This document shows, piece after piece, positions 8,227 to 45,437 of a DNA stretch of 45,437 nt. The notes below the pieces were generated by a model that worked only from the letters and a program-made list of their open reading frames with translations, searched no databases and was not told the DNA's origin. Within the stretch, counting starts at the first letter, position 1. The number at the start of each line of letters is the position of its first letter. The DNA comes from Promethearchaeati archaeon (GTDB lineage Archaea > Asgardarchaeota > Heimdallarchaeia > JABLTI01): NCBI GenBank assembly GCA_013166835.1, contig JABLTI010000012.1, positions 1 to 45,437 of the forward strand. The letters are read 5' to 3'. The translations under genes were made by a program, and so were the position numbers.

Positions 8227-10034
8227 TGTCTTGGTTTGGTGTAGGTAGAAGTGAAGAAGAGGGTGAAAGAAAATTCACTGATAAAGAACTTACTCAAAAA
8301 ATGATTCATTATATTTCTCCTTACAAACGAGCTATCTTAATCACGACAATATTTATTGTAATAAATACTGCTTTGACACTTGCTCCCCCTTACATTATTG
8401 GTAGATTATTTGATATGGCACTAGAAATAGATGCTTCTATTAGGATAATTATTGCTCTAGTTATCACAAATATGGTTCTTAATTTTCTTACATGGTTTCT
8501 AGGGGAGTATTTGACTCGAGTAATTACTATACGAGCCATTACAAAAGCAACAAGAGATATACGAATGGATATGTTTAATAAAATCCAGAATCATGATTTC
8601 AGATTCTTTGATTCTCATATCACAGGAAAAATCATGTCTCGAGTAATGAATGATACAGACACTCTTAGAGATACCCTTTTCTTCATAACTCAATTAATTG
8701 GTAATGTCTTATTGGTCTTAGCTTCGACAGGATTACTCATTTACTTGAATTGGCAATTGGCATTAATTTCCCTCTCATTAACACCACTATTGTTTCTGCT
8801 TATGTACATCTTTAGAAAATTCGTCAGAAGAACAATGCTAAATTGGCGAAAAACTGTAGCGATTGTTAATGCTGCTATGGGAGAAAGCATTTCAGGGATA
8901 GCGGTTAGTAAATCTTTCTCAAGAGAAAAACAAAATTTGGAAGATTTCAAAAAAGTGAATCATAATAATTTTGTAGCCTCATTCAAACGAGCTCTAACTT
9001 TTGCCACTCTTTGGCCCATTGTAACGCTTCTACAGATCATAGTTTTAGTATTATTGTATCTCTATGGACAAAACTTAGTTCTCTTTAATTCAGCCGTGGT
9101 TATCACCCCAGGTCTTTTGTACAGTTTCACTATCTATCTTTGGAGATTTTTCTTCCCATTAACACAAGTTGCTAATTTCTATTCACAATACCAAGCCGGA
9201 CTTGCAGCAATGGAGAGAATTTTCGGATTAATGGCAATAGAGTCAGAAGTACAACAGTCAGAAGAACCAATTATAATCCCTGAATTTAAAGGAGAAATCG
9301 AATTCAAAAATATGGATTTCTGGTACAATGAGGAAGAAAAGGTATTCGAAAAATTCTCCTTAAAAATCGAACCAGGAGAAACAGTAGCAATTGTGGGGGA
9401 AACTGGAGCTGGAAAAACAACTTTGGCTTCTTTACTCTCGAGATTTTATGAAATCAAAGGAGGAGAAATCCTCATCGATGGAGTGGAAATTCGAAAACTT
9501 CACATCGAATGGTACAGACAACAAGTTGCTTTAGTTTTACAAGACAGTTTCTTATTCGCAGGTTCTATAAAAGATAACATAAAATTTGGTCGGATATGGG
9601 ATGATCCTACTGATGAAGAGGTTCATCTAGCTGCTAGAGCAGTCCAAGCAACTGAATTTATCGAAGATTTTCCTGATGGTTTTGAGACTGATGTTTTGGA
9701 ACGTGGTAAAAGATTATCCACTGGACAAAGACAATTAGTTACTTTCGCTCGAGCATTACTTGCTGATCCTAAAATCTTAATCCTTGATGAGGCCACTGCG
9801 AGCGTTGACGCGTACACTGAAGCCATGATTCAAGATGCTCTTGAGATGATCATGAAAGGTAGGACCTCAATAATTATTGCCCATCGACTTTCTACAATTA
9901 AAAATGCTGATAAAATTGTTATGATTGAACATGGTAAAATTGTAGAAATGGGAAGCCACGATCAGCTTTTGAAGGAGAAAGGCCACTATGCAAATCTCTA
10001 TGATACTTACTTCAAGCACCAATCTTTGTTCTAA
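8226..10034 (+). CDS. ABC exporter TMD-NBD subunit 2 (TM288-like)
   Basis: GETGAGKT, degenerate LSTGQ signature, ILILDE, AHR; TAATG stop/start overlap with subunit 1. Confidence 0.93.
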   Translation: MSWFGVGRSEEEGERKFTDKELTQKMIHYISPYKRAILITTIFIVINTALTLAPPYIIGRLFDMALEIDASIRIIIALVITNMVLNFLTWFLGEYLTRVITIRAITKATRDIRMDMFNKIQNHDFRFFDSHITGKIMSRVMNDTDTLRDTLFFITQLIGNVLLVLASTGLLIYLNWQLALISLSLTPLLFLLMYIFRKFVRRTMLNWRKTVAIVNAAMGESISGIAVSKSFSREKQNLEDFKKVNHNNFVASFKRALTFATLWPIVTLLQIIVLVLLYLYGQNLVLFNSAVVITPGLLYSFTIYLWRFFFPLTQVANFYSQYQAGLAAMERIFGLMAIESEVQQSEEPIIIPEFKGEIEFKNMDFWYNEEEKVFEKFSLKIEPGETVAIVGETGAGKTTLASLLSRFYEIKGGEILIDGVEIRKLHIEWYRQQVALVLQDSFLFAGSIKDNIKFGRIWDDPTDEEVHLAARAVQATEFIEDFPDGFETDVLERGKRLSTGQRQLVTFARALLADPKILILDEATASVDAYTEAMIQDALEMIMKGRTSIIIAHRLSTIKNADKIVMIEHGKIVEMGSHDQLLKEKGHYANLYDTYFKHQSLF

Positions 10035-15671: not shown

Positions 15672-15870
15672 TTTAATGAAAATGGAAAGATGGAAAAACT
15701 GGTCATTTGTTATTTTCAAATATGCTTTTTTTCCCAGTAAAAACATATGTTTATATGAGAAAAAACAAAGAAATAGCTATGTTTTGTAAAAAACTATTTA
15801 TAAAGCAATCATACATAAACAATTAATTTACATAAAAATTGTGAGGCAAAAATTTAAAGGAAAAAATACT

Positions 15871-16179
15871 ATGCCAGGAACCTGTCCAAAATGTGGACTT
15901 CCAAAAGAGCTATGCATGTGTCAAGCCATAGCCAAGGAAGAACAGAGAATAAAAGTGCGTATTGAGACGCGCAAGTGGGGAAGAGAAGTAACTTTGATTA
16001 TGGGGATTAATCCCAAAGAAGTTGACATTAGTTCTTTAACTACCAAGTTAAAAAATAAGTGTGCCTGTGGTGGAACCGCCAAAGAAGGGATTATCGAATT
16101 ACAGGGAGATCATCGTCATAGAATCAAGGATTTGTTATTAAAGGAAGGCTATGATAGTACAAATATTGACATTCAATAG
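15871..16179 (+). CDS. sui1: Translation initiation factor aIF1 (SUI1 family)
   Basis: CPKCGLPKELCMC N-terminus, RKWGREVT, LK.KCACGGT, IELQGDHR. Confidence 0.96.
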   Translation: MPGTCPKCGLPKELCMCQAIAKEEQRIKVRIETRKWGREVTLIMGINPKEVDISSLTTKLKNKCACGGTAKEGIIELQGDHRHRIKDLLLKEGYDSTNIDIQ

Positions 16180-30620: not shown

Positions 30621-30651
30621 TTAAATCACTTACAAACAGGATTTTTACACA

Positions 30652-32553
30652 TTATAGGTTTTGCTCTTTGCTAATTTTCTCAATCATTTCCTCTGCTTTC
30701 TTATCTTCTTTATCTAATGAAACAAGCTTCTCAAAACACTTCTTTGCATTTTCTATTTTTCTATAGGCGTATAGCTGATTTCCAAAATTTCTTAGATTAT
30801 CTTTGAATATCTCATCAATTTCAATTGTCTTTAGAATGAAATCGTAGGCTACATCAAATCCTTTTTGAAGATTTAGTATTTCTGCAATACCAGAGTACGA
30901 TACTTTAAATCCATGCTTTTTGTGTATGTTTGATTTACATTCTTCAAGTAATTCATCAATATTCAATTCAGTTTTAGTTAATGGAATATTTCCGTAATTT
31001 ATCTTATCTTCATCTAAGAGAAATGATTCTCCATCCCCTGTAAAGAATACATTGTTTTGATATTCTTCTAATTTCAAGTTATCAGACAAATATAAGTAAA
31101 GATAACCATTGGAGATATTCAAAATTGTATGATGATCTATGCCATAAATAGTAAACTTATATATTCCAAGGAATTTCTCCCAAAATTGCTTATTTGGACC
31201 AATCTCATCATTTGGAGTATCATTCTGTTTTAAATGGAAAAGAAAATCATTAGTTATCCACTTCAATAATTTTACTTTTTCTTGCTTGTCCAAAATGAAG
31301 GTAAACTTGTTTCCGTCTTCAGTTAAGTATTCTAGTTCATTTTGTGGATATAGAATTTGCTTCTTTCCAAAAGTATTGAAAACATATAGCTTCTCATCCT
31401 CGTAGACAATGTTTCGCATACTTATTCTATGACCAAAATACGTTCCTACAAGTTTTTTCAGCTTCCTAGGTTCAACATATACGACTTTTGGTTTGGTTTT
31501 CTCCTTATACATTAATCCTAATGCTTTTCTTGCAAGCTTTACTTGCTCTCCGGAGTGATGTGCAGAATTAGTGAAAACAATAGCGGAAATTTTGTGATCC
31601 AATATCCAACTATGCTGTGTCTGATATCCGTAGCCCCCACCTCCATGACAGTAAACTTCAACACCATTAATTGGATTTTCTTTGTAAATACCCAAACTAT
31701 ATTTGTTTTTCACTCCATCCTCTTCAAATTGAGGTTTATACATTTCCTCAAAATGCTCTTTGGAAATTAGCTGTTTACCATTAGCTTTTCCTTTATTCAG
31801 ATGTAACATTGCTATTTTTGCTTGTTCATTAACCGAAATGTACACACCGCCAGCTCCCAACATTGGAACTTGAACAGTAGGTGTTTGAAATTCGCCAATA
31901 GTGCCTTTAGCAAATGAATGAGATAAAGCTTCATCAATATCTAATGTAGCTTTTTTAATTCCTATAGGTTGAAATAATTCTTCTTTTACGACATCTGGAA
32001 AAGTTTTCTTCATAATTTTACCTAGAACGTATCCAGTTAAATCAAAACCAATATTAGCATATGCAAATTCAGAACCAACTTTACTTCTCAACCAGGTATC
32101 TGCAATACTTGCTATATGCTCTTCTTTGGTACAAGGGGCATCGTCAAAATTGTTCCCAACAGCTGCTTCATGAGTGAAGCTTGCTGTATGGCTAAGCATT
32201 CTTCTAAAAGTTATTTTCTCAATTTCTTTATCTCTATTGCCAAATTTTGTATTAACAACAAATTCAGGATAGTGTTTTCTTATCGGATCATCGAGATCTA
32301 TTAATCCTTTACTTGCTAATATCATGAAAGTTGTTGCAGTAACAGTCTTTCCCATTGATTGAGTACTAAAGAGAGTATCAGCAGTAACCTTCTCTTTCTT
32401 TGTTATATCTGTGAAGCCAAAACCCTCTGACCAAATAATTTTATCATCATCAACTAATGCTATGGCTAGTCCACAGATTTTTTCTTTTGTAATAACTTCC
32501 TTTACTTCTTCTCTCATTTCTTCGATTAGAGTATTGTAATTAATTGAATCCAT
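30652..32553 (-). CDS. Serine hydrolase (beta-lactamase class C/PBP-like) with C-terminal accessory domains and a TPR-like end
   Basis: F...SMGK (SxxK), LSHTA, YAN, HGG. Confidence 0.88.
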   Translation of the reverse strand: MDSINYNTLIEEMREEVKEVITKEKICGLAIALVDDDKIIWSEGFGFTDITKKEKVTADTLFSTQSMGKTVTATTFMILASKGLIDLDDPIRKHYPEFVVNTKFGNRDKEIEKITFRRMLSHTASFTHEAAVGNNFDDAPCTKEEHIASIADTWLRSKVGSEFAYANIGFDLTGYVLGKIMKKTFPDVVKEELFQPIGIKKATLDIDEALSHSFAKGTIGEFQTPTVQVPMLGAGGVYISVNEQAKIAMLHLNKGKANGKQLISKEHFEEMYKPQFEEDGVKNKYSLGIYKENPINGVEVYCHGGGGYGYQTQHSWILDHKISAIVFTNSAHHSGEQVKLARKALGLMYKEKTKPKVVYVEPRKLKKLVGTYFGHRISMRNIVYEDEKLYVFNTFGKKQILYPQNELEYLTEDGNKFTFILDKQEKVKLLKWITNDFLFHLKQNDTPNDEIGPNKQFWEKFLGIYKFTIYGIDHHTILNISNGYLYLYLSDNLKLEEYQNNVFFTGDGESFLLDEDKINYGNIPLTKTELNIDELLEECKSNIHKKHGFKVSYSGIAEILNLQKGFDVAYDFILKTIEIDEIFKDNLRNFGNQLYAYRKIENAKKCFEKLVSLDKEDKKAEEMIEKISKEQNL

Positions 32554-32709
32554 TTTTATCACATATTTTATTTTTAAATGAATAGATTTAGAAACCAAGC
32601 ATGTTTGATAAATTCAGAACCATTATATAAATAATTATTACAATTCTTGGTTTTCTAATTATATACTATAACTATAAAAAAGAAAATTCAGTAATACATT
32701 TGAAGAAAA

Positions 32710-33987: not shown

Positions 33988-34052
33988 TGATACAATAATT
34001 GGAAAATTTTTATTAGTAGAATTAATCATTTTTAGTATTGTGGGTGATTTTC

Positions 34053-34831
34053 TTGAGTCTCTTAAAAGATGATAGAAAAACATTGACTGAAAAAGAAGCA
34101 GCAATAATTTTTGATGCAGAAGCAATAAACATTATTTATGAAACCAAACCTGAAATTGTTGAACGTTTATTACCACCGCCTTTAGAACCGTTTGAGATTC
34201 CATTAGTCAGGGTGTATATCGCTAATTTCCCAAGAACTAACTTTGGGATAATATACAAAGAAGTGGCATTATTACTAGTTTGTAAATATAAAGGAGAAAT
34301 AGGAGTCTACACTCTCAGCATGCCTGTGGATAATGATATGGCTATGGTGCTTGGAAGGGATATTTTTGGATATCCGAAAAAAGTAGGCAATATCCATTTG
34401 GAAAAGAAAGGCAACAATGTTCATGGTTGGGTGGAACGCAACGGAGTTCGATTTGTAGAGATTAATGCAAAAACAGGAATCAAAATACCTGAAAAACAAG
34501 CAATAAAACACGGGTTAGGAGCAAATAAAAGTTAAGGAATTGGATTCAACTTTAAGCATTTTCCTGCACCAGATGTGAATGGTTTTGATTATAATCCGCG
34601 TTTAGTTAGACATCCTTTAGATTTTGAAAGAAGAACCTTGTTGAATGCTAAAGCAACTATTAAATTTAATCCATCAAAGGATGATCCTTGGTTTGAAGTT
34701 GTTAAGATGATTGGAGCATACTATGCAGTTCAGACAATAGGAATGTTAAAAGCTATAAAGTCGTAGCAGAAGTAGATCAAAATACTTTCATACCGTATTC
34801 TTTTCTGAAATGGGATGAAGAAAATATCTGA
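34053..34831 (+). pseudogene. Acetoacetate decarboxylase family gene, disrupted
   Basis: LLPPPL, Y.E, GRDIFGYPKK; in-frame TAA at 34533 then GIGFNFKHFP...; frameshift near 34755 to KVVAEVD..FIPYSFLKWD, TGA at 34829-34831. Confidence 0.8.
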
Positions 34832-34855: not shown

Positions 34856-35680
34856 TTATTCTTTCTGAAGAACGTATTGGAAATAAATCATTGTACCATC
34901 AGCAAACTCTGCGTATCTTTGTGATTCTTTAGTGCTTGAAAATTCCTCTGCCAACCCATGAAACATTTTAGGGGTTTTCTTCTTAATGAGTTGACATCGT
35001 CTTTCGGAATCCAAATCCAGAGCTTTGACAACATTCTGAATAATATTAACTTCTTTTTTAACCTCAAGTCCGACCCTCTTGAATCGCTCTCGTAACTGCT
35101 CATTTTCTTCTTCTGTTCGTATGTCTGCAAACAAAAGATGTCCGCCAGGTCGAAGAACACGATGAACCTCAGATATGAAAGCATCCATATCATTGTAACT
35201 TCTTGAAGATTCAACATTAACTATCGCATCAAATGATTGATCTTCAAAAGGAAGCTTCTGAGCATTCCCCTCCACAAAAGAAAGACCAGGTACCTTGTGA
35301 AATTTAGTATTAAATTTAATAACATCCTTAGACATGTCTAAGCCAATATAGGAGGTTGGTTTGAAATACCGAGTAATATACGAAGCTCCACCACCACGAC
35401 CACAGCCAACTTCGAGAACATCTTTGTTTTCAAGGGCAACATCTACTACTGTTGAGTGATATAACTGAAGACAATATCTCTCCTTTTCATCATTAGCCTG
35501 TAATTTTAGAGATTCGTGCTTGGAATCTAAATACTCGTAACCGTAATTCAAGAAAACTAATTCAGATCCATCATATTTTCTGATAATGAATCGATGCATT
35601 GATCGCCATAATAGTTTTTTTAAAAACATCGATGCAGAAAGATAAAAAGTAATGATTTTCCTCATTTTTCTAACCAACAA
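34856..35680 (-). CDS. Class I SAM methyltransferase (phthiotriol/fatty-acid O-methyltransferase-like)
   Basis: FLNYGY, RYCLQLYH, LEVGCGRGGGASY, NVESS, LRPGG. Confidence 0.85.
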   Translation of the reverse strand: MLVRKMRKIITFYLSASMFLKKLLWRSMHRFIIRKYDGSELVFLNYGYEYLDSKHESLKLQANDEKERYCLQLYHSTVVDVALENKDVLEVGCGRGGGASYITRYFKPTSYIGLDMSKDVIKFNTKFHKVPGLSFVEGNAQKLPFEDQSFDAIVNVESSRSYNDMDAFISEVHRVLRPGGHLLFADIRTEEENEQLRERFKRVGLEVKKEVNIIQNVVKALDLDSERRCQLIKKKTPKMFHGLAEEFSSTKESQRYAEFADGTMIYFQYVLQKE

Positions 35681-35765: not shown

Positions 35766-36272
35766 TTATTTTATCTCTGAAGCTTCAATTATGGCTTGTG
35801 TTGGTATACGTTGTAAACAATGAGGACATGTTCCCTTTGTTTTCACCCATTCAAATAGATGTGCGAAATGTCCTTTTGATTCACAAAGGCTGCATTTTCC
35901 AATTTCATCACCAAAGGAGATGGGTAATTTGCATACTGTACATCGGAGTATTCTTTTCCCACAATCAGGACAAAATTCACTATGCTTTTTAAGAGGAAAG
36001 CCACACCAAAAACAAGTTTGATACTTTTTTTCAGTATAATTAGCAAATTCAGATTGAGAAGATGCAAGAATAGGAAGATCTTCTTGAGTTTTTCTTTTTT
36101 TAGCATAAATAACAACAATACCAACAATTACAGATATTATTCCTACAATCGCGATTATTGGCCAAATGGAAAAACTAAAAGTACCTCTCAGATAAATAAA
36201 AGCAAAAATTCCACCTAAGAAAGTGAGACCCAAACCACCAATAGTAATTGATAATGTTTTATTATTAACCAT
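35766..36272 (-). CDS. Membrane-anchored zinc-ribbon plus RING-like protein
   Basis: Two N-terminal TMs; CFWC/CPDC ribbon; CTVC..CSLC..H..H...W......CPHC. Confidence 0.75.
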   Translation of the reverse strand: MVNNKTLSITIGGLGLTFLGGIFAFIYLRGTFSFSIWPIIAIVGIISVIVGIVVIYAKKRKTQEDLPILASSQSEFANYTEKKYQTCFWCGFPLKKHSEFCPDCGKRILRCTVCKLPISFGDEIGKCSLCESKGHFAHLFEWVKTKGTCPHCLQRIPTQAIIEASEIK

Positions 36273-40572: not shown

Positions 40573-41265
40573 TTAACCACAAATTCTCCCTAAGAATCTT
40601 TCAAGTAAGTAACCAATTAACCAAATTATTCCTCCAAGAAAAGCAGAAATTCCAAAGGTAAAAATAAGGAGAAATGAAAATTTCTTTCTTTTAACTTTAA
40701 CTGAGGTTTCATACTTCATATTACTAAAGAACAGCAAGAGACCAAATCCAGCTATCACAGAAAAACCGCCAACACCAATTATGAGGTAAAACACATAGCT
40801 TTCTAGATTAGGATTAATGATTTCAAATATTGAAATAATAGTACTTGCTACAATACCTACACCAAACAAAAAGTAAGAAGCTTGTTTAGCTGCTGGTGGC
40901 ATATTCTTTCCCAGTTTCCGACCTCTTTTAATGGATGAACTATAACTGTCTATTGCTTTCACATTACTAATTTTCCCACAATTAATACAGTATCGACATT
41001 CAGCAAAAGTGGGTTCTTGACATTCATTACAACGAGCAATTGTGAAATGCCCTTTCTGATAGCTATCCCAATATTCACTTACTCTCACCAAACATTTACC
41101 GCACAGAAAGCCTTGAGCTGTACCATAAGTTCTCATAGTGACTCTAATAGCTGCACTACATTTTGGACAATAAATCTTATCAGTAGTTTTTCTAGGTATT
41201 GGTAAGACTAACTCAGAATCAATTTCAATGTCTGTATTCTCTTCAGAAGTAAATGACAAATTCAT
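40573..41265 (-). CDS. Zinc-ribbon (four CxxC) membrane protein
   Basis: CPKC, CGKC, CNEC, CINC followed by three TMs. Confidence 0.72.
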   Translation of the reverse strand: MNLSFTSEENTDIEIDSELVLPIPRKTTDKIYCPKCSAAIRVTMRTYGTAQGFLCGKCLVRVSEYWDSYQKGHFTIARCNECQEPTFAECRYCINCGKISNVKAIDSYSSSIKRGRKLGKNMPPAAKQASYFLFGVGIVASTIISIFEIINPNLESYVFYLIIGVGGFSVIAGFGLLLFFSNMKYETSVKVKRKKFSFLLIFTFGISAFLGGIIWLIGYLLERFLGRICG

Positions 41266-41348
41266 CCCACCCAATAATATCAAGATACTGTAACCTTGAG
41301 ACTTCTTGTTTGTTTCGCAAAAATTGGGTAGAGATTACAAGAAACAAA

Positions 41349-41417
41349 AACTCAAAATCAATAGCACAAAACGAAAACCGGACGAGGGTAAACCAGCCCC
41401 CGTCGCAGGAAAAGGGA
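41349..41417. repeat. Intergenic hairpin repeat, copy 1
   Basis: AACTCAAAATC...AACGAAAACCGGACGAGGGTAAACCAGCCCCCGTCGCAGGAAAAGGGA. Confidence 0.85.
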
Positions 41418-41479
41418 TTATGATATCCTAAAAAAATTATAATAAAGCTTAAACAATAAAAGCATATACTATTCTAATT

Positions 41480-42151
41480 ATGAATAATGAATATTCAATA
41501 ATTGAATATTATCGAAGAAGAGCTCCAGAATATGAAGCTATTTATGGAAGACTTGATTCTGAAATTCAGAAAGAAAATCAAGAAACAGCAGAAATTCTGA
41601 AACAATATTTTATTGGAAGAAAAGTCTTAGAAGTTGCTTGCGGGACAGGTTATTGGACGCAATTATTAGCGAAAACCGCAATGGATATTACAGCTACAGA
41701 TATTAACAAAGAAGTATTGGACATAGCGAAACAAAAAAAATACAAATGCCCTGTTTCCTTCCAAATAATGGATGCCTATCAGCTTGCTTTTGAAGATAAT
41801 AGATTTAATGCCGGATTAGCGAATTTTTGGTTTTCTCACATTCCTAAAAATAAGATTAATCACTTCTTATCAGAGTTTCATCGAGTCTTGCGACCAGGTT
41901 CGAGAGTATTCTTTACAGATAATCACCACAAACACCTTTCTGATTCATTAGGACCAATTAAAACCAAAAAAGAAGATAAAAATACCTACAAATTACGGTT
42001 ATTGAGAGATGATAGTGAATATCTTGTTATAAAGAACTATTACACAATGAAGGAACTTGTAAAAATTTTTAGTAAACATGTAAAGGGATTTTCTGAATTA
42101 AATGTTAATTTTGGTAAATATTTTTGGAGAATTACATACGAATTGGATTAA
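41480..42151 (+). CDS. Class I SAM-dependent methyltransferase
   Basis: YY..RAPEYE.IY, LEVACGTGYWT, FWFSHIP, LRPG. Confidence 0.9.
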   Translation: MNNEYSIIEYYRRRAPEYEAIYGRLDSEIQKENQETAEILKQYFIGRKVLEVACGTGYWTQLLAKTAMDITATDINKEVLDIAKQKKYKCPVSFQIMDAYQLAFEDNRFNAGLANFWFSHIPKNKINHFLSEFHRVLRPGSRVFFTDNHHKHLSDSLGPIKTKKEDKNTYKLRLLRDDSEYLVIKNYYTMKELVKIFSKHVKGFSELNVNFGKYFWRITYELD

Positions 42152-42197
42152 TTTTTTCTTTTAGTTTATAATTGCTTTTTCCTCTCATAAGGACATC

Positions 42198-42767
42198 TTA
42201 CTCTTTCTTTTCATATTCCTTACCGATAGAAAACGCTTTAGCTATTCGTTCACCTATTTTATAATAGTGTAAATCAGATGCATAAAGAAGAGGATCAACA
42301 GTGAGAGCATCAGGTCTTTTTCGATCAGAAACCAAATCTTCATTCACAAAAGTTTCATCAACCTTACCAACAAAAACATCCATGCCACCAACTGGAAATT
42401 CTTTGATAACGTTACATGAAATATTAATTGAGCATTCCTCAATAAGAGGAGCAGTTTTAATGTTTCCAAAAAAGGTTTTGAAGACTTCAGACTTGTCAGT
42501 TTTATGGCCAGTAGCTATGCCACAAAAATCAGATTCGACAACTAAATCCGATGAGGGAAAATTAATACTAAAAGTCTTGTTTTCTCGAACACCTATATTG
42601 GTGTAATGACTTTTGTGCGAAGAAATATACATAGTTGCAGGTCCCAAAGACATAATCCCTACATTACCAACAAGACTATAGTTTGGTTTCTCTTTAACAA
42701 CAGATCCAAAAAGTGCAATGGGGATAGGATACATCAAAACTCTAGAACCAAGGTTTACTTTTTTCAT
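42198..42767 (-). CDS. Flavin reductase family protein (flavoredoxin-like)
   Basis: YP.P, KPN, HYTN.G......FSINFP, DFCG..TG...DK, APLIEEC. Confidence 0.88.
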   Translation of the reverse strand: MKKVNLGSRVLMYPIPIALFGSVVKEKPNYSLVGNVGIMSLGPATMYISSHKSHYTNIGVRENKTFSINFPSSDLVVESDFCGIATGHKTDKSEVFKTFFGNIKTAPLIEECSINISCNVIKEFPVGGMDVFVGKVDETFVNEDLVSDRKRPDALTVDPLLYASDLHYYKIGERIAKAFSIGKEYEKKE

Positions 42768-42814
42768 AGAAAATGATTGTAAATAAATAATAAAAGAATT
42801 AAGTTGAATCTAGT

Positions 42815-42878
42815 AAAATCAATTAGATGGGTGAAAAACCGAACAGAGGGAAACCAACCACAGTCGCGTGAAAAGGGA
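42815..42878. repeat. Intergenic hairpin repeat, copy 2 (diverged)
   Basis: AAAATCAAT...AAAACCGAACAGAGGGAAACCAACCACAGTCGCGTGAAAAGGGA. Confidence 0.75.
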
Positions 42879-42954
42879 GTTTAGCTTCGTTTTTTAAGGA
42901 AATATAATTGAATGATATTTGTGTATAATAGAGCTAGTTTGGGGTGGGTGTTAA

Positions 42955-43305
42955 ATGAGTGAAAAATCCGAAGAACAAAAGACAGAATTCAAACTAGCTT
43001 ATTTTCCGAAAATTTGTGCTGCCGTTTCAAGTATACCTATTTTAGGATTTTTGATTGTAATTTTAGTTGTGTTTGTAGGCGATGCACATCCATATGCGTT
43101 TTTTATTTATGGTGCATTATGTGGAATCATGTTCGGAGTTGGCATCATAGTAAGTATAATAATAAGCATCATTGTGTTTAATATTCAGAAAAAGAAGAGA
43201 ATCGCTAGAAAAATAACTTGTCCAACTTGTCAAGTTAAACATGAACCGAGTACCGAATTTTGTAGTTATTGTGGAACCGATTTAACTGTAACCGAAACAA
43301 GTTAA
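42955..43305 (+). CDS. 2-TM protein with C-terminal zinc ribbon
   Basis: GGTG RBS; two TMs; CPTC-x10-CSYCG. Confidence 0.75.
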   Translation: MSEKSEEQKTEFKLAYFPKICAAVSSIPILGFLIVILVVFVGDAHPYAFFIYGALCGIMFGVGIIVSIIISIIVFNIQKKKRIARKITCPTCQVKHEPSTEFCSYCGTDLTVTETS

Positions 43306-43326
43306 TCGAACTTTTATTTTCATCTG

Positions 43327-43388
43327 AACTCAAAATCCTTACACAGAACGAAAACCGGACGAGGGCAAAGCAGCACCCGTCGCGGGAA
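43327..43388. repeat. Intergenic hairpin repeat, copy 3
   Basis: AACTCAAAATC...AACGAAAACCGGACGAGGGCAAAGCAGCACCCGTCGCGGGAA. Confidence 0.85.
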
Positions 43389-43416
43389 TCTTTTTACATT
43401 GTGGTTTATTGGTTAT

Positions 43417-45437
43417 TCATTCAATAATCGCTTGAATAACTAAATTAGCTATAGTTCGGGCTCTATATTCTTCCATTCGTGCAGTTGATATAACAACCAA
43501 ATTGTATTCTGGGAGTACTTGTATCATTTGACCACCCCATCCCATAGCATAGTACCTATCAGCTTCTACCCAGAAGTGATATCCATAACCAGGAGGTGAC
43601 CAAGGTCCATAAACAGAAACATTTTGCATATAGTCTATTGTTGATAACTGAATCCATTCTTCAGGTATAATCTGAGCTCCATCCCAAGTTCCGTTATTAA
43701 GATAAAGTTGACCAAATTTTGCTAGATTTCGAGGAGTTAAAAATAATCCAATTCCTCCATGATGTACTCCATCCGAACTTGAAACCCATACTACGTCTTC
43801 TTCTTCTATACCTATTGGTGAGAATAAATTCTGAATAGCAAATTCATATGTTGATTGATTTGTTGCTCGTTTTATAATTGCAGATAATAATTGAGACGAA
43901 CCAGTGTTGTATTCATAATAATCTCCAGGATTACCATACATACTTCTGGTTATAATATGTTCAACACTGTCATTTTCTACGCCCATAGCCCAAATATCAT
44001 CGTATTCATCATAGCTAAGGCAAGAAGTCATGGTAAGAAGATGATGAATGGTGATATTTTGTACACGACTATCCATGGGAGCTCCGCTTAATTCGGGGAA
44101 ATAATCCAGTAGTTTATCATCGGTGCCATTTATGTATCCTTTATCAATAGCAATTCCAACTAAAGCTGAAGTAAAACTCTTGGTGGCAGAAAACAAGGTA
44201 TGTTTGGTTGTAACTTTGAAATTTTGTTCTTGAGTATCAAGAAAATAACGTTCATAAATTAATTTGCCGTCCTTGAGAACTAAAATGGAATGAAACTTAA
44301 AATAATCAAATATACTTAAATTATCTTCCAATATATCCGGATCAATTCCAACTTCATCGGGTGTTCCAAGGATCCATTCATCTATTTCCTCAGTTGTATT
44401 TAATTTCGAATGTTTTCCCCATAATTTAATCGTCCAATCCCAACTTGCTGAGGCAAGGTATTGACCATCAGGGGAAAATTTCACAGCTTCAATAGTGTTC
44501 TCATGTCCCGTTAACTCTTCCTTTAGCTTGTATTTCTCCATATCCCAGATCTGTATACTGCAATTATGCATATTCCCAAAAGTTAACCAATAGACATCAG
44601 GCCATTCTAAATCTGAATCCACTGCAATAGCAAGTTCATAATTTAGTGGAGATTGACTAATCGACCAGATTGGTTGCCCTGATTGTAATTCCTTAATCAT
44701 CTCACCCGATTGGTAATCCCATAATTTTACTGTCCCATCAAGACTTGCTGACATAATAGATGACTGGTCAATTGAGAAAATAACTGAAGTTACTATGTCA
44801 GTATGACCTTGAAATACATTTATCTGGGTTCCGGATTCGATATCCCATAAACGAACACTATTGTCCTTTGAACCTGATAGTAAATAGACTCCATCATCAG
44901 ATATTGAAATAGACACTACTGCTTCCTGATGTCCGAGAAATTGCTTCAATATTTGACTATTGCTAGTATTCAAAATTTGCAAGTACTTTTCAGGTTGTCC
45001 ATAATCAGTTTCTACTCCCATGTATTCTCCACCAGCAACCACAAGGGATTCTTCATCAGCCAGCCACTTTAAATCAGTGACTCCCATTGGATAGATAGAA
45101 AATGTCTTAATGTGTTCTCCTGAGGAGACATTCCAAAGATTAATTTTGTTATCATATCCTCCAGAAGCGATAATTTTTCCCGAAGGAGAAAATGCAAGTG
45201 CAATTACTCCGTAGTGGTGTCGAGATAACACATGCAAAGTTTCACCTGTTTCTATATCCCATATTCTTACACTGCCATCAGAGGAACCAGTTGCTAAGAT
45301 TGGATCTACTGGTGAAAAAGCGACTTCCCTTACACGCCAACCATGCCCTCGCAACGTAGCAAAATTATTATTGTAAACACCTCTATCTACTAGAAGAAAA
45401 ATACCAAGAATTCCAGAAGAAACAACAACAAGAATGA
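43417..45437 (-). CDS. WD40 beta-propeller fused to a serine hydrolase (beta-lactamase class C-like); 5' end lies outside the window
   Basis: GH...V..V.FSP....LA.GS.D..VR.WD repeats; FSATK, LLTM, YNT, G.GGQ; frame stays open to the window edge through a hydrophobic segment (ILVVVSSGILGIFLLV). Confidence 0.9.
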   Translation of the reverse strand, partial: ILVVVSSGILGIFLLVDRGVYNNNFATLRGHGWRVREVAFSPVDPILATGSSDGSVRIWDIETGETLHVLSRHHYGVIALAFSPSGKIIASGGYDNKINLWNVSSGEHIKTFSIYPMGVTDLKWLADEESLVVAGGEYMGVETDYGQPEKYLQILNTSNSQILKQFLGHQEAVVSISISDDGVYLLSGSKDNSVRLWDIESGTQINVFQGHTDIVTSVIFSIDQSSIMSASLDGTVKLWDYQSGEMIKELQSGQPIWSISQSPLNYELAIAVDSDLEWPDVYWLTFGNMHNCSIQIWDMEKYKLKEELTGHENTIEAVKFSPDGQYLASASWDWTIKLWGKHSKLNTTEEIDEWILGTPDEVGIDPDILEDNLSIFDYFKFHSILVLKDGKLIYERYFLDTQEQNFKVTTKHTLFSATKSFTSALVGIAIDKGYINGTDDKLLDYFPELSGAPMDSRVQNITIHHLLTMTSCLSYDEYDDIWAMGVENDSVEHIITRSMYGNPGDYYEYNTGSSQLLSAIIKRATNQSTYEFAIQNLFSPIGIEEEDVVWVSSSDGVHHGGIGLFLTPRNLAKFGQLYLNNGTWDGAQIIPEEWIQLSTIDYMQNVSVYGPWSPPGYGYHFWVEADRYYAMGWGGQMIQVLPEYNLVVISTARMEEYRARTIANLVIQAIIE

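Follow-up and report, generated by a model that had tools for sequence, protein, structure and literature searches.

Truncated, co-oriented copies of a predicted small-RNA gene end separate variable genes in arrays of one Heimdallarchaeia family

The DNA analyzed here, a 45,437-nucleotide contig of a Heimdallarchaeia metagenome-assembled genome (hereafter the window), carries three co-oriented copies of a repeat element, probably the recombination scars or att-like repeats of a site where genes have accreted beside a predicted small-RNA gene that serves as its anchor. We describe the anatomy of the copies, the intact anchors, co-orientation within arrays, gene-content breaks at elements, chimeric copies and the decay of partial copies, and we infer that the arrays were built by recombination at the conserved block. 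A first-pass annotation, made from the letters of the window, had offered three readings of these copies: recombination sites of a cassette-like gene-capture array, a REP/MITE-like element moved by an HUH nuclease, and a multicopy small RNA.

A covariance model with 24 members of the element family as input, scanned over the window with filters off, matched only the three copies, each ~83 nt and all on the minus strand, which is the folding strand; the next best match scored 16.4 bits (E 1.3). The three co-oriented placements first proposed are thus borne out. The exact 19-mer said to be common to copies 1 and 3 was found in the sequence, and gene calls agree that flanking genes are divergent at copies 1 and 2 and convergent at copy 3, with one or two unrelated genes bracketed. 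Copy 1, between divergent genes, has an intact hairpin (41378-41408) of 11 bp, with one bulged C, one G-T pair and a T run. Copy 3, between convergent genes, has its hairpin at 43355-43385 and is missing the C/T-rich stretch ahead of the stem, which forms the 5′ part of the block. The stem of copy 2 (~42838-42869) contains 4 non-pairs. The 3′ end of this copy is uniquely shared with a copy in a related genome (L026:452-534; blastn 87%) that adjoins the orthologous flavin reductase gene. The proposal that the minus strand folds better held for copy 1 (-16.8 versus -13.4 kcal/mol) and copy 3 (-19.4 versus -17.0 kcal/mol), but not for copy 2, whose fold is poor on either strand. None of the three copies folds better than its shuffles (z -0.9 to +1.3).

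Table 1. Element copies and neighboring genes in the window, and full anchor genes of the same genome (G000)
Feature	Position	Strand	Evidence and remarks
Anchor gene	G000:C142 ~15790-15915		Contig other than the window's; window copies are of the C142 type
Anchor gene	G000:C77 ~77247-77374		Contig other than the window's
Gene 3′ of copy 1: membrane protein, 236 aa	40573..41283	-	Pfam DZR (double zinc ribbon), weak, E 6e-4, below cut-off
Partial copy 1, subfamily A	41343..41426	-	Covariance model 93.6 bits, E 6.5e-16; fold -16.8 kcal/mol; alignments
Cassette gene: SAM-dependent methyltransferase, 223 aa	41480..42151	+	Pfam Methyltransf_25/11; blastn 76.8% to L019
Cassette gene: flavin reductase-like, 189 aa	42198..42767	-	Pfam Flavin_Reduct
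Partial copy 2, subfamily A, degenerate	42804..42887	-	Covariance model 65.1 bits, v marks in alignment; no stable fold
Cassette gene: small membrane protein with C-terminal zinc ribbon, 116 aa	42955..43305	+	Pfam Zn_Ribbon_1/DUF7575
Partial copy 3, subfamily A	43321..43400	-	Covariance model 68.9 bits; fold -19.4 kcal/mol
Probable further cassette gene: WD40 propeller fused to beta-lactamase-like domain	43417..45354	-	Pfam

Strand preference is a property of the element family. Across 51 copies, the stem contains 406 Watson-Crick and 71 G-T pairs on the folding strand versus 406 and 33 on the complement, and pairing is better on the folding strand in 32 copies, equal in 13 and worse in 6. The conserved block starts sharply at an AAC triplet (43, 44 and 42 of 51 copies) and ends after a GATTTTGAG(TTT) box, having continued for ~35 nt past the T run; at ~90 nt, it is longer than the ~65 bp first estimated. 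The stem has one bulged base, on the 5′ arm, and is bordered by unpaired stretches of ~8 nt (5′) and ~25 nt (3′). Pairing of an outer AAACTC with GAGTTT is kept in only 63% of cells, and subfamily B lacks it. Covariation, which the first-pass annotation had named as a check, was weak for this hairpin: not significant on 24 copies and borderline on 52 copies aligned to the model. RNAalifold returned a poor consensus with a differing fold from the 24-copy alignment. Comparison with Rfam revealed no gathering-score match anywhere in the window, chance-level matches off the elements at E up to 10, and no match at E up to 1 in four loci holding full anchors; within these searches the element corresponds to no Rfam family.

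The element is confined to one taxonomic family, occurring in 11 of 11 relatives and in 0 of 71 genomes from the remainder of the class. The source genome contains 12 matches on five contigs, which belong to two array types and are not scattered. A conserved 24-mer had 0 matches among viral contigs, ARAGORN found no tRNA or tmRNA in the window or in 7 array loci, and an archaeal SSU model found no rRNA in the source MAG. A literature search yielded no account of this element or of a small-RNA-anchored array.

In 11 genomes, a shared upstream sequence precedes 17 element copies, which fall into two orthologous groups (8 and 9 genomes). Folded one by one, all 17 of these anchors form a 5′ hairpin, a long single strand and a 3′ hairpin. 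A full anchor gene spans ~115-125 nt and consists of a TATA-like box ending ~20-22 nt ahead of the covarying 5′ hairpin, a near-invariant C/U-rich single strand of ~40 nt, a GC-rich 3′ hairpin and a T run. Pairing in the 5′ hairpin is kept through quite different sequences, with G-U pairs that suit this strand only. We relied on per-sequence folds, as MAFFT did not bring the 5′ hairpins of the two anchor groups into register, which accounts for the low pair count of its alignment (46.5%). Exact 11-mer complements of the putative seed, which would mark targets in trans, numbered 80 genome-wide, self sites included, versus 121 for the reversed control. By its sequence and predicted folding, the anchor is a family-specific predicted small-RNA gene, previously undescribed. 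The predicted gene family is strongly conserved: two hairpins surround the near-invariant strand, in genomes of one taxonomic family only.

The arrays follow the anchors. Each genome has two arrays and ~12 copies, with subfamily A copies behind anchor 1 and subfamily B copies behind anchor 2. In 9 multi-copy loci, both members of all 27 adjacent element pairs face the same way irrespective of gene direction, and all copies are co-oriented within each of 7 multi-copy metagenome contigs, some of which are perhaps the same DNA as the genomes. Co-orientation is strict over arrays of up to ~11 kb, with up to 7 repeats in a row and modules of 0.5-3 kb that hold one or two cargo genes each. The gene 5′ of the element lies on the same strand in 30 cases and on the opposite strand in 19 (n = 49); for the gene 3′ of it, the counts are 29 and 22 (n = 51), and in 9 of 51 copies both neighbors are on the other strand. 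With the 5′-side gene in the same direction in only 30 of 49 cases, a plain terminator is insufficient, as had been argued at the outset.

We compared related genomes for breaks in gene content. Because all of them are MAGs of one family, and incomplete (64-92% complete; the source genome 84.75%), the comparisons are not independent. Orthologous anchors match at 0.89-0.96 identity as far as the 5′ arm; this drops to 0.81 across the loop and 3′ arm and to 0.62, equal to background, in the tail. Consistent with this boundary, 48 inter-genome pairs share only the 5′ flank, 4 only the 3′ flank and 4 both (pairs not independent). The DNA 3′ of the anchor hairpin differs among genomes and holds co-oriented partial copies between one or two unrelated accessory genes. 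Intergenic regions with an element were collinear in 8 of 82 genome comparisons, versus 164 of 447 for those lacking one. Several comparisons resolve single events. On contig C142 of the source genome, the anchor is followed directly by gene B, while its counterpart, G007:C142, has three more copies, with 4.4 kb between; the single copy in the source genome is chimeric, its 5′ half matching the first G007 copy and its 3′ end the fourth. Relative to G008, G010 has an extra 1.45 kb directly after the anchor, closed off by a partial copy in which the G008-type tail is preserved. Two species with ~85% identity in the flanks of gene B have 97.8% identity in the gene itself, and the same cassette genes occur in differing neighborhoods with element copies at the borders. 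Gene-content breakpoints between relatives do therefore fall at elements, and the cassette-like array first proposed is supported by these breaks together with the co-orientation. Several breaks within the island, for example at window positions 30637/32642, 33992/34847 and 42152-42197, are without an element. We found no clean pair of filled and empty sites with a target duplication; wherever a copy is present, the neighbors differ too.

The cargo of the window fits this pattern. In a related genome, element copies at L019:14790 and L019:15624 enclose the methyltransferase orthologue, and in a related genome the flavin reductase-like orthologue likewise lies between two (L026:452 and a weak copy, L026:1205); in the window the two genes adjoin, with no element between them (42152-42197). 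To the left of the gene at 40573..41283, the filters-off scan found no further copy in the window. Across arrays, the cargo is integron-like and includes methyltransferases, hydrolases, surface propellers, a ParE toxin and DUF433. Logan contigs contained two backward joints, each with 43 letters on the shorter side. One, 45437 -> 43327, seen in one contig of run X1, leads from the last base of the window to the start of another element copy, which suggests that the array continues beyond the contig. The other, 43759 -> 41370, probably comes from a paralogous gene.

A model that accommodates these data is that accessory DNA is gained or lost through recombination within the ~90-nt block, with the crossover at or just 3′ of the 5′ arm of the hairpin. 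Such a crossover would leave the anchor gene whole and end each inserted module in a partial copy of the same direction. The window copies would then derive from the final ~55 nt of the small-RNA gene and the ~35 nt behind it, duplicated, cut down and partly decayed, and the outcome would be a variable island of one- or two-gene modules in either orientation with co-oriented repeats between them. The array would work as integron arrays do, with attI replaced by the 3′ end of the small-RNA gene. Recombination could proceed through a site-specific enzyme acting in trans or by a homologous (Campbell-type) route, and the differences between genomes could reflect insertion or deletion between repeats.

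A linked tyrosine recombinase, which the first-pass annotation had advised looking for, did not turn up. PF00589 had no match on the array contigs of five genomes (G004, G005, G007, G009 and G010), and Pfam revealed no recombinase domain in ~50 array-associated proteins. In the source genome, we found one tyrosine recombinase, a XerA-like protein that has a Cys-rich insertion and is encoded on a contig other than the window's (C61). This protein scores 33 bits against TIGR02249 (cut-off 265) and is thus no integron integrase; as a phmmer query, a weak single-sequence search, it found no relative among the 969 ORFs of all fetched loci. Searches of the same genome, 84.75% complete, found no serine recombinase (PF00239) and no Y1 transposase (PF01797). 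Circular junctions were likewise not seen: metagenome contigs of four runs and 25 metagenome loci yielded no excised circle, circular contig or clean excision joint. The Logan contigs of these four runs (in run X9, parts of the window are without cover) had no well-supported joint at any element, and the 25 loci had no terminal overlaps.

Four other explanations deserve weight. We consider it unlikely that the copies function individually at the RNA level, whether as transcript 3′ ends or terminators or by offering a binding platform in common with the small RNA, and that they spread by duplication because of their use to neighboring genes, with variable gene content incidental. This explanation would account for the T runs behind a GC-rich hairpin on the folding strand, for G-T pairs that favor one strand, for a 5′-side gene that runs in the same direction in 30 of 49 cases and is often near, and for a same-strand 3′-side gene whose start codon often lies 26-110 nt behind the copy. 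Yet 19 of 49 copies have no same-strand upstream gene, 9 of 51 have both neighbors on the other strand, orientation tracks the array and not the genes, and the conserved block continues past the T run. The inner stem, moreover, is imperfect in 17 of 32 partial copies (perfect in 15), whereas it is perfect in 19 of 19 anchors. This decay also counts against the window copies being independent genes of a multicopy small-RNA family, which is highly improbable. The element does form the 3′ domain of an sRNA-like gene, so that part of the early suggestion stands, and the hairpin and T run of copy 1 are intact. However, the window copies have neither the TATA-like box nor the 5′ hairpin, little of the single-stranded region, and no copy of a conserved 19-nt upstream motif that occurs at only 2 places in the source genome, neither in the window; lacking promoter, 5′ hairpin and most of the single strand, they are fragments rather than genes.

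Mobility raises two further explanations. That the copies are genuine attC sites in a CALIN (an attC cluster without integrase), recombined by an IntI encoded elsewhere or in another cell, is very unlikely, although archaeal integrons are reported to be enriched in Asgard archaea and to be mostly CALINs (PMC9668308). As defined in PMC5027507, the R′ box (5′-RYYYAAC-3′) on the folding, or bottom, strand of an attC site pairs with R″ (5′-GTTRRRY-3′). In attC sites, R and L boxes are split by an unpaired central spacer of 5-6 nt per arm, 2-3 extrahelical bases lie on the L″ arm, one strand folds better than the other, and length is 57-141 bp. The block has a suitable length, a preferred folded strand, one bulge, co-orientation, cassette contents, an AAC triplet at its 5′ edge and GTT inside the 3′ box. 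A search for two R boxes 50-145 nt apart on either strand, within each element +/- 30 nt, found RYYYAAC ... GTTRRRY in 0 of 51 copies, in line with the early remark that R boxes are absent; of R′, only the AAC triplet is conserved. The unpaired flanks are of ~8 and ~25 nt rather than 5-6 nt each, the single bulge is on the 5′ arm, the outer pairing fails in many cells and throughout subfamily B, cassette ORFs have no orientation bias, the one recombinase found is far below the integrase cut-off, and the block is the 3′ end of a predicted RNA gene, unlike attC sites. A non-autonomous mobile element, MITE- or REP-like and derived from the small-RNA gene end, might instead have been placed into intergenic DNA by a transposase such as an HUH enzyme acting on single-stranded hairpins; this we regard as very unlikely indeed. 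It would explain the strand-preferring hairpin, the short terminal inverted repeats (AAACTC/GAGTTT), the intergenic position, and the genes that are flanked by copies in one genome but not in another. Against it, the copies are few, sit in two arrays behind their own anchor types and are strictly co-oriented, Y1 transposase was not found in the source genome, and clean filled and empty sites with a target duplication were not seen. The early suggestion of HUH-driven movement thus fares poorly.

On the preferred reading, a gene-accretion site at the end of a predicted small-RNA gene, the finding is a sequence-defined site at which accessory genes are gained, lost and swapped between species, as the near-identical gene B in more divergent flanks illustrates. 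Having neither canonical attC boxes nor IntI, the site would escape integron finders. Site-specific recombination there would imply an enzyme, still to be discovered, that acts on a structured target of ~90 bp; homologous recombination would mean that the short, conserved end of an RNA gene can serve as a portable landing pad. Among known organisms, Asgard archaea are most closely related to eukaryotes, and their uptake of foreign genes is an open question. We raise, tentatively and as the less likely outcome, the broader possibility that Heimdall-group archaea, perhaps Asgard archaea generally, capture genes by means of a platform distinct from both integrons and classical integrative elements. 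Its insertion site would be the 3′ end of the small-RNA gene, and promoter-bearing single-gene modules from relatives would be stacked there by a recombinase in trans or an RNA-gene-guided process, in which the C/U-rich small RNA could take part, for example by marking or regulating the site.

Several known systems resemble these arrays in part. Hairpin repeats of the intrinsic-terminator or REP type share a GC-rich stem, a T run and an intergenic position; here, in contrast, orientation follows the array, there are two loci per genome and conserved sequence lies on both sides of the stem. REP/RAYT or IS200/IS605 elements also fit poorly, given no PF01797 match in the source genome (84.75% complete) and 12 hits confined to two array types on five contigs. 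Aloposons, which PMC8813620 describes as large tRNA-targeting transposons with giant genes, were rejected as relatives.

Integron arrays and CALINs are alike in more respects. As reported in Asgard and other archaea (Ghaly et al. 2022; PMC9668308), they too are rows of one- or two-gene cassettes with co-oriented, imperfect palindromic repeats of ~90 nt that are closer within than between arrays, include toxin-antitoxin genes in cassettes, differ between relatives by whole cassettes and have one conserved end at which variable DNA starts. Here, however, the repeat copies a small-RNA gene 3′ end, has no R′/R″ boxes, and has asymmetric unpaired flanks and one bulged base only, on the other arm; cassette genes face either way, and repeats away from the anchor decay. 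No IntI or other recombinase gene lies at the conserved end, and the array contigs of five genomes had no IntI next to an array with attI (genomes 64-92% complete).

The pdif/dif modules of Acinetobacter plasmids are Xer-dependent and have pdif sites of 28 bp in alternating orientation. They share small gene modules, short recombination sites and a host recombinase encoded elsewhere, and the sole tyrosine recombinase found in the source genome is Xer-like; the sites described here differ in being ~90 nt, of one orientation and RNA-gene-derived. Integrative elements also accrete in tandem at the 3′ ends of tRNA, tmRNA and other small RNA genes, with attL and attR as duplicates of the gene end. 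Unlike such islands, the arrays have modules of 0.5-3 kb with one or two cargo genes, up to 7 repeats in a row and no integrase of their own next to the att-like site (~50 proteins by Pfam; phmmer), and the target is an undescribed predicted small RNA, not a tRNA (ARAGORN found none). In both, a structured RNA gene is targeted at its 3′ end and stays intact at one end of the inserted DNA (here 17 anchors of a predicted RNA), a truncated co-oriented copy lies at each far border, and serial insertion would produce an array.

The three co-oriented hairpin repeats that the first-pass annotation had picked out in the window were confirmed by alignment of their minus strands, across ~85 nt, and by a covariance model built on 24 family members and run over the whole window with filters off. 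Only three copies were found; the fourth-best match scored 16.4 bits (E 1.3). The proposed hairpin with a bulge and a G-U pair held for copies 1 and 3, whose 11-bp stem has a single bulged C and a single G-U pair, and failed for copy 2, which has lost the stem. Folding z-scores were not significant for any of the three copies taken singly, and no Rfam family matched them. Reading frames and Pfam matches bore out the layout of flanking genes described earlier. The ORF at 43417-45354 joins a WD40 beta-propeller (residues ~1-313) to a serine beta-lactamase-like domain (~356-622).

Repeat copies in the window and full sRNA-like genes (anchors) in the source genome, G000
Feature	Position	Strand	Evidence	Neighbouring genes (ORFs and Pfam)	Gene layout
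Copy 1	41343-41426	minus	covariance model, 93.6 bits	zinc-ribbon membrane protein / methyltransferase	divergent
Copy 2	42804-42887	minus	covariance model, 65.1 bits	flavin reductase / small zinc-ribbon protein	divergent
Copy 3	43321-43400	minus	covariance model, 68.9 bits	small zinc-ribbon protein / WD40-beta-lactamase-like fusion	convergent
Anchor 1	G000 contig C142, ~15790-15915 (locus L023, 9788-9915)		upstream unit present		
Anchor 2	G000 contig C77, ~77247-77374 (locus L022, 7247-7374)		upstream unit present		

The window is the whole of contig C185 in a MAG of 3.56 Mb (84.75% complete, 33.7% G+C). Here the covariance model found 12 copies: three in the window, two on C121 (2.2 kb), one on C142, five on C77, and a weak one on C74. 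The element is present genus-wide, in all 11 genomes at 1-13 copies each, and occurs in 11/11 other genomes of the family versus 0/71 genomes from the six other families of the class. Orientation was uniform on every multi-copy contig, with 27 of 27 adjacent pairs co-oriented (36 copies, 9 multi-copy loci); the same was true of 7 multi-copy metagenome contigs, some of which may be the same DNA as the genomes. By a crude ORF caller, the neighbouring gene ran in the direction of the copy in 30 cases and opposite to it in 19 on the 5′ side (29 and 22 on the 3′ side), and both neighbours opposed the copy in 9 cases. Since co-oriented copies stand amid genes running either way, a plain terminator or operator is insufficient to explain them, as had been argued from the window. 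In a contig from metagenome run X1, the last base of the window is joined to the start of another copy; thus, the array probably continues past the contig end.

Comparison of flanks between genomes revealed that the 5′ flank alone was shared by 48 element pairs, the 3′ flank alone by 4, and both flanks by 4. The 48 pairs resolve into two sets of orthologues, one from 8 genomes and the other from 9. Alignment of 200 nt upstream showed that in these copies, the anchors, the element is the terminal part of a longer conserved unit. This unit consists of an A/T-rich TATA-like box ~20-22 nt before a 5′ hairpin; the hairpin itself (9-13 bp), which varies in sequence by genome and group with pairing kept; a predicted single strand, ~40 nt long, C/U-rich and near-invariant; and the GC-rich 3′ hairpin of the repeat, followed by a T run. 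G-U pairs in the 5′ hairpin are compatible with one strand only, which is that of the gene, and folding gave two hairpins around a single strand in 17/17 anchors. This layout is the anatomy of a putative small-RNA gene of ~115-125 nt. Neither Rfam nor ARAGORN returned a match at the anchor loci. A look for RNA sequencing runs covering the window found none.

Such sRNA-like genes number 2-4 per genome, are restricted to one family, and in the source genome comprise the two anchors only. A search of 400 genomes from the phylum for the 19-nt single-strand core at 0-1 mismatch placed it in this family only (12/12 genomes, G000 included); at two mismatches it appeared in 8 other genomes, on par with a reversed control (9 genomes). 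Sites complementary to the single strand were not in excess in the genome. In 8/8 genomes, a palindrome, TTCCG-N8-CGGAA, lies ~100 nt upstream of the anchor-1 gene (L023 ~9700-9720 and seven other loci) and could be a terminator of the upstream gene or a regulator's binding site. Anchor 1 of one relative, G006 (L038:4705-4860), carries an extra 26-nt perfect hairpin within the conserved single strand, just 5′ of the AAC triplet at which partial copies begin.

In non-anchor copies, including the three in the window, the promoter-like box and the 5′ hairpin are missing, as is the greater part of the single strand. The earlier guess of a multicopy small RNA was therefore right in that the repeat is the tail of an sRNA-like gene, and wrong for the window copies, which are fragments of it. 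Conservation starts abruptly at the AAC triplet (letters kept in 43, 44, and 42 of 51 copies), continues across the hairpin and T run and a variable segment of 12-14 nt, and stops after a GATTTTGAG(TTT) box. This gives a block of ~90 nt, reaching ~35 nt past the presumed RNA end, which retains the hairpin core described before and replaces its ~65-bp length. Subfamily A, with one loop and 3′ arm common to copies behind the C142-type anchor, includes all three window copies; subfamily B has a different loop and 3′ arm, common to copies behind the C77-type anchor, and a third form occurs in three genomes. Pairing across the 8 inner bp of this stem was complete in 19/19 anchors versus 15/32 partial copies, indicating that the hairpin is constrained at the end of the RNA gene and relaxed elsewhere.

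From these sequence comparisons, we favor, with moderate confidence, a model of a gene-accretion site whose anchor is the 3′ end of the sRNA-like gene and at which recombination acts on the block. Identity among orthologous anchors was 0.89-0.96 up to the hairpin 5′ arm, fell to 0.81 across loop and 3′ arm, and dropped in the tail to 0.62, no higher than in flanking DNA that is unrelated. Breaks in gene content between relatives fall at elements. On C142 of the source genome, the anchor is followed by a gene, B; at the same place in G007 (its contig C142), the two are 4.4 kb apart, with four genes and three further copies in between. The single G000 copy is chimeric, its 5′ half being that of the first G007 copy and its 3′ end that of the fourth. 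Gene B (L019:9324-11207; L023:9959-11833; 624-627 aa, no Pfam match) is 97.8% identical in DNA between two species, compared to ~85% for neighbouring DNA, and looks like a recently exchanged cassette. Similarly, an extra 1.45 kb, absent from G008, immediately follows the anchor hairpin in G010; this insert terminates in a partial copy with a G008-type tail, and the G010 anchor tail differs.

The window methyltransferase and flavin reductase genes adjoin with no element between them; in G007 they are on separate contigs, each between two copies. Window genes 34856-35680 and 35766-36272 are element-free here and element-flanked cassettes in G004 and G005. In a synteny test, intergenic regions with an element were collinear with another genome in 8/82 comparisons, and element-free regions from the same loci in 164/447 (8/14 versus 164/182 when both neighbouring genes could be located); the contrast is not a clean one, given that the loci were picked around elements and the genomes are related. 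Gene content in this island also changes at several breakpoints that lack an element; thus, the block is not the sole route of change. A beta-lactamase-like gene (window 30652-32598) and a 165-aa gene (34038-34535) are absent from the otherwise collinear contig C136 of G007 (L026), with no element at either junction.

Exchange at or just behind the hairpin 5′ arm would leave the RNA gene whole and close off the far side of each module with a partial copy in the same orientation. Its agent could be a site-specific enzyme acting in trans or homologous, Campbell-type recombination. The sharp left edge that the two paralogous arrays have in common, and an architecture in which inverted arms flank an asymmetric spacer of 7-8 nt, argue for a dedicated enzyme; the decayed partial copies, together with the lack of a linked recombinase, argue for homology. 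A search for a linked recombinase, as the first-pass annotation proposed, found no tyrosine recombinase on any array contig in five genomes, and the ~50 array-associated proteins scanned contained no recombinase domain. These include methyltransferases, hydrolases, SDR, phosphotriesterase, FG-GAP/LVIVD propellers, ParE toxin, and DUF433 proteins, among others. In G000 (84.75% complete), we found no Y1 transposase or serine recombinase, and the single tyrosine recombinase detected is XerA-like (contig C61, L021:934-1992; NF040815, 117 bits, below the cut-off of 220), with a Cys-rich insertion of ~90 residues holding several Cys pairs. G005, G007, and G010 encode proteins about as long as this recombinase (351-360 aa); in a single-sequence search, 0/969 ORFs across all the loci compared resembled the XerA-like protein. 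The block was absent from viral contigs, and no circular contigs or clean excision joints were seen.

By either agent, a gene-accretion site at the block would explain the truncation point, orientation by array rather than by genes, the pairing of each array type with its anchor type, chimeric copies, decay of distal copies, and integron-like cargo. The cassette-array idea put forward from the window was largely right, given the co-orientation, the content breaks at elements, and this cargo. New here are the anchor structure and the recognition that the repeat is the tail end of an sRNA-like gene. Literature searches turned up neither the element nor an array anchored on an sRNA gene; the sites may already be listed as integrase-less attC clusters in the archaeal integron survey PMC9668308.

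We rejected the attC family, as defined in PMC5027507, because R boxes occur in 0/51 copies (their absence had been noted in the window), the unpaired spacers and extrahelical bases are a misfit, and no IntI was found. A ParE-family toxin gene and a DUF433 gene form one small cassette each (L019:8718-8969; L017:15718-15969); likewise, chromosomal integrons carry toxin-antitoxin genes as cassettes. In its way of working, the array is closest to sedentary integrons and CALINs (attC clusters without an integrase), which PMC9668308 reports in Asgard archaea, and it also resembles islands that accrete in tandem at RNA genes.
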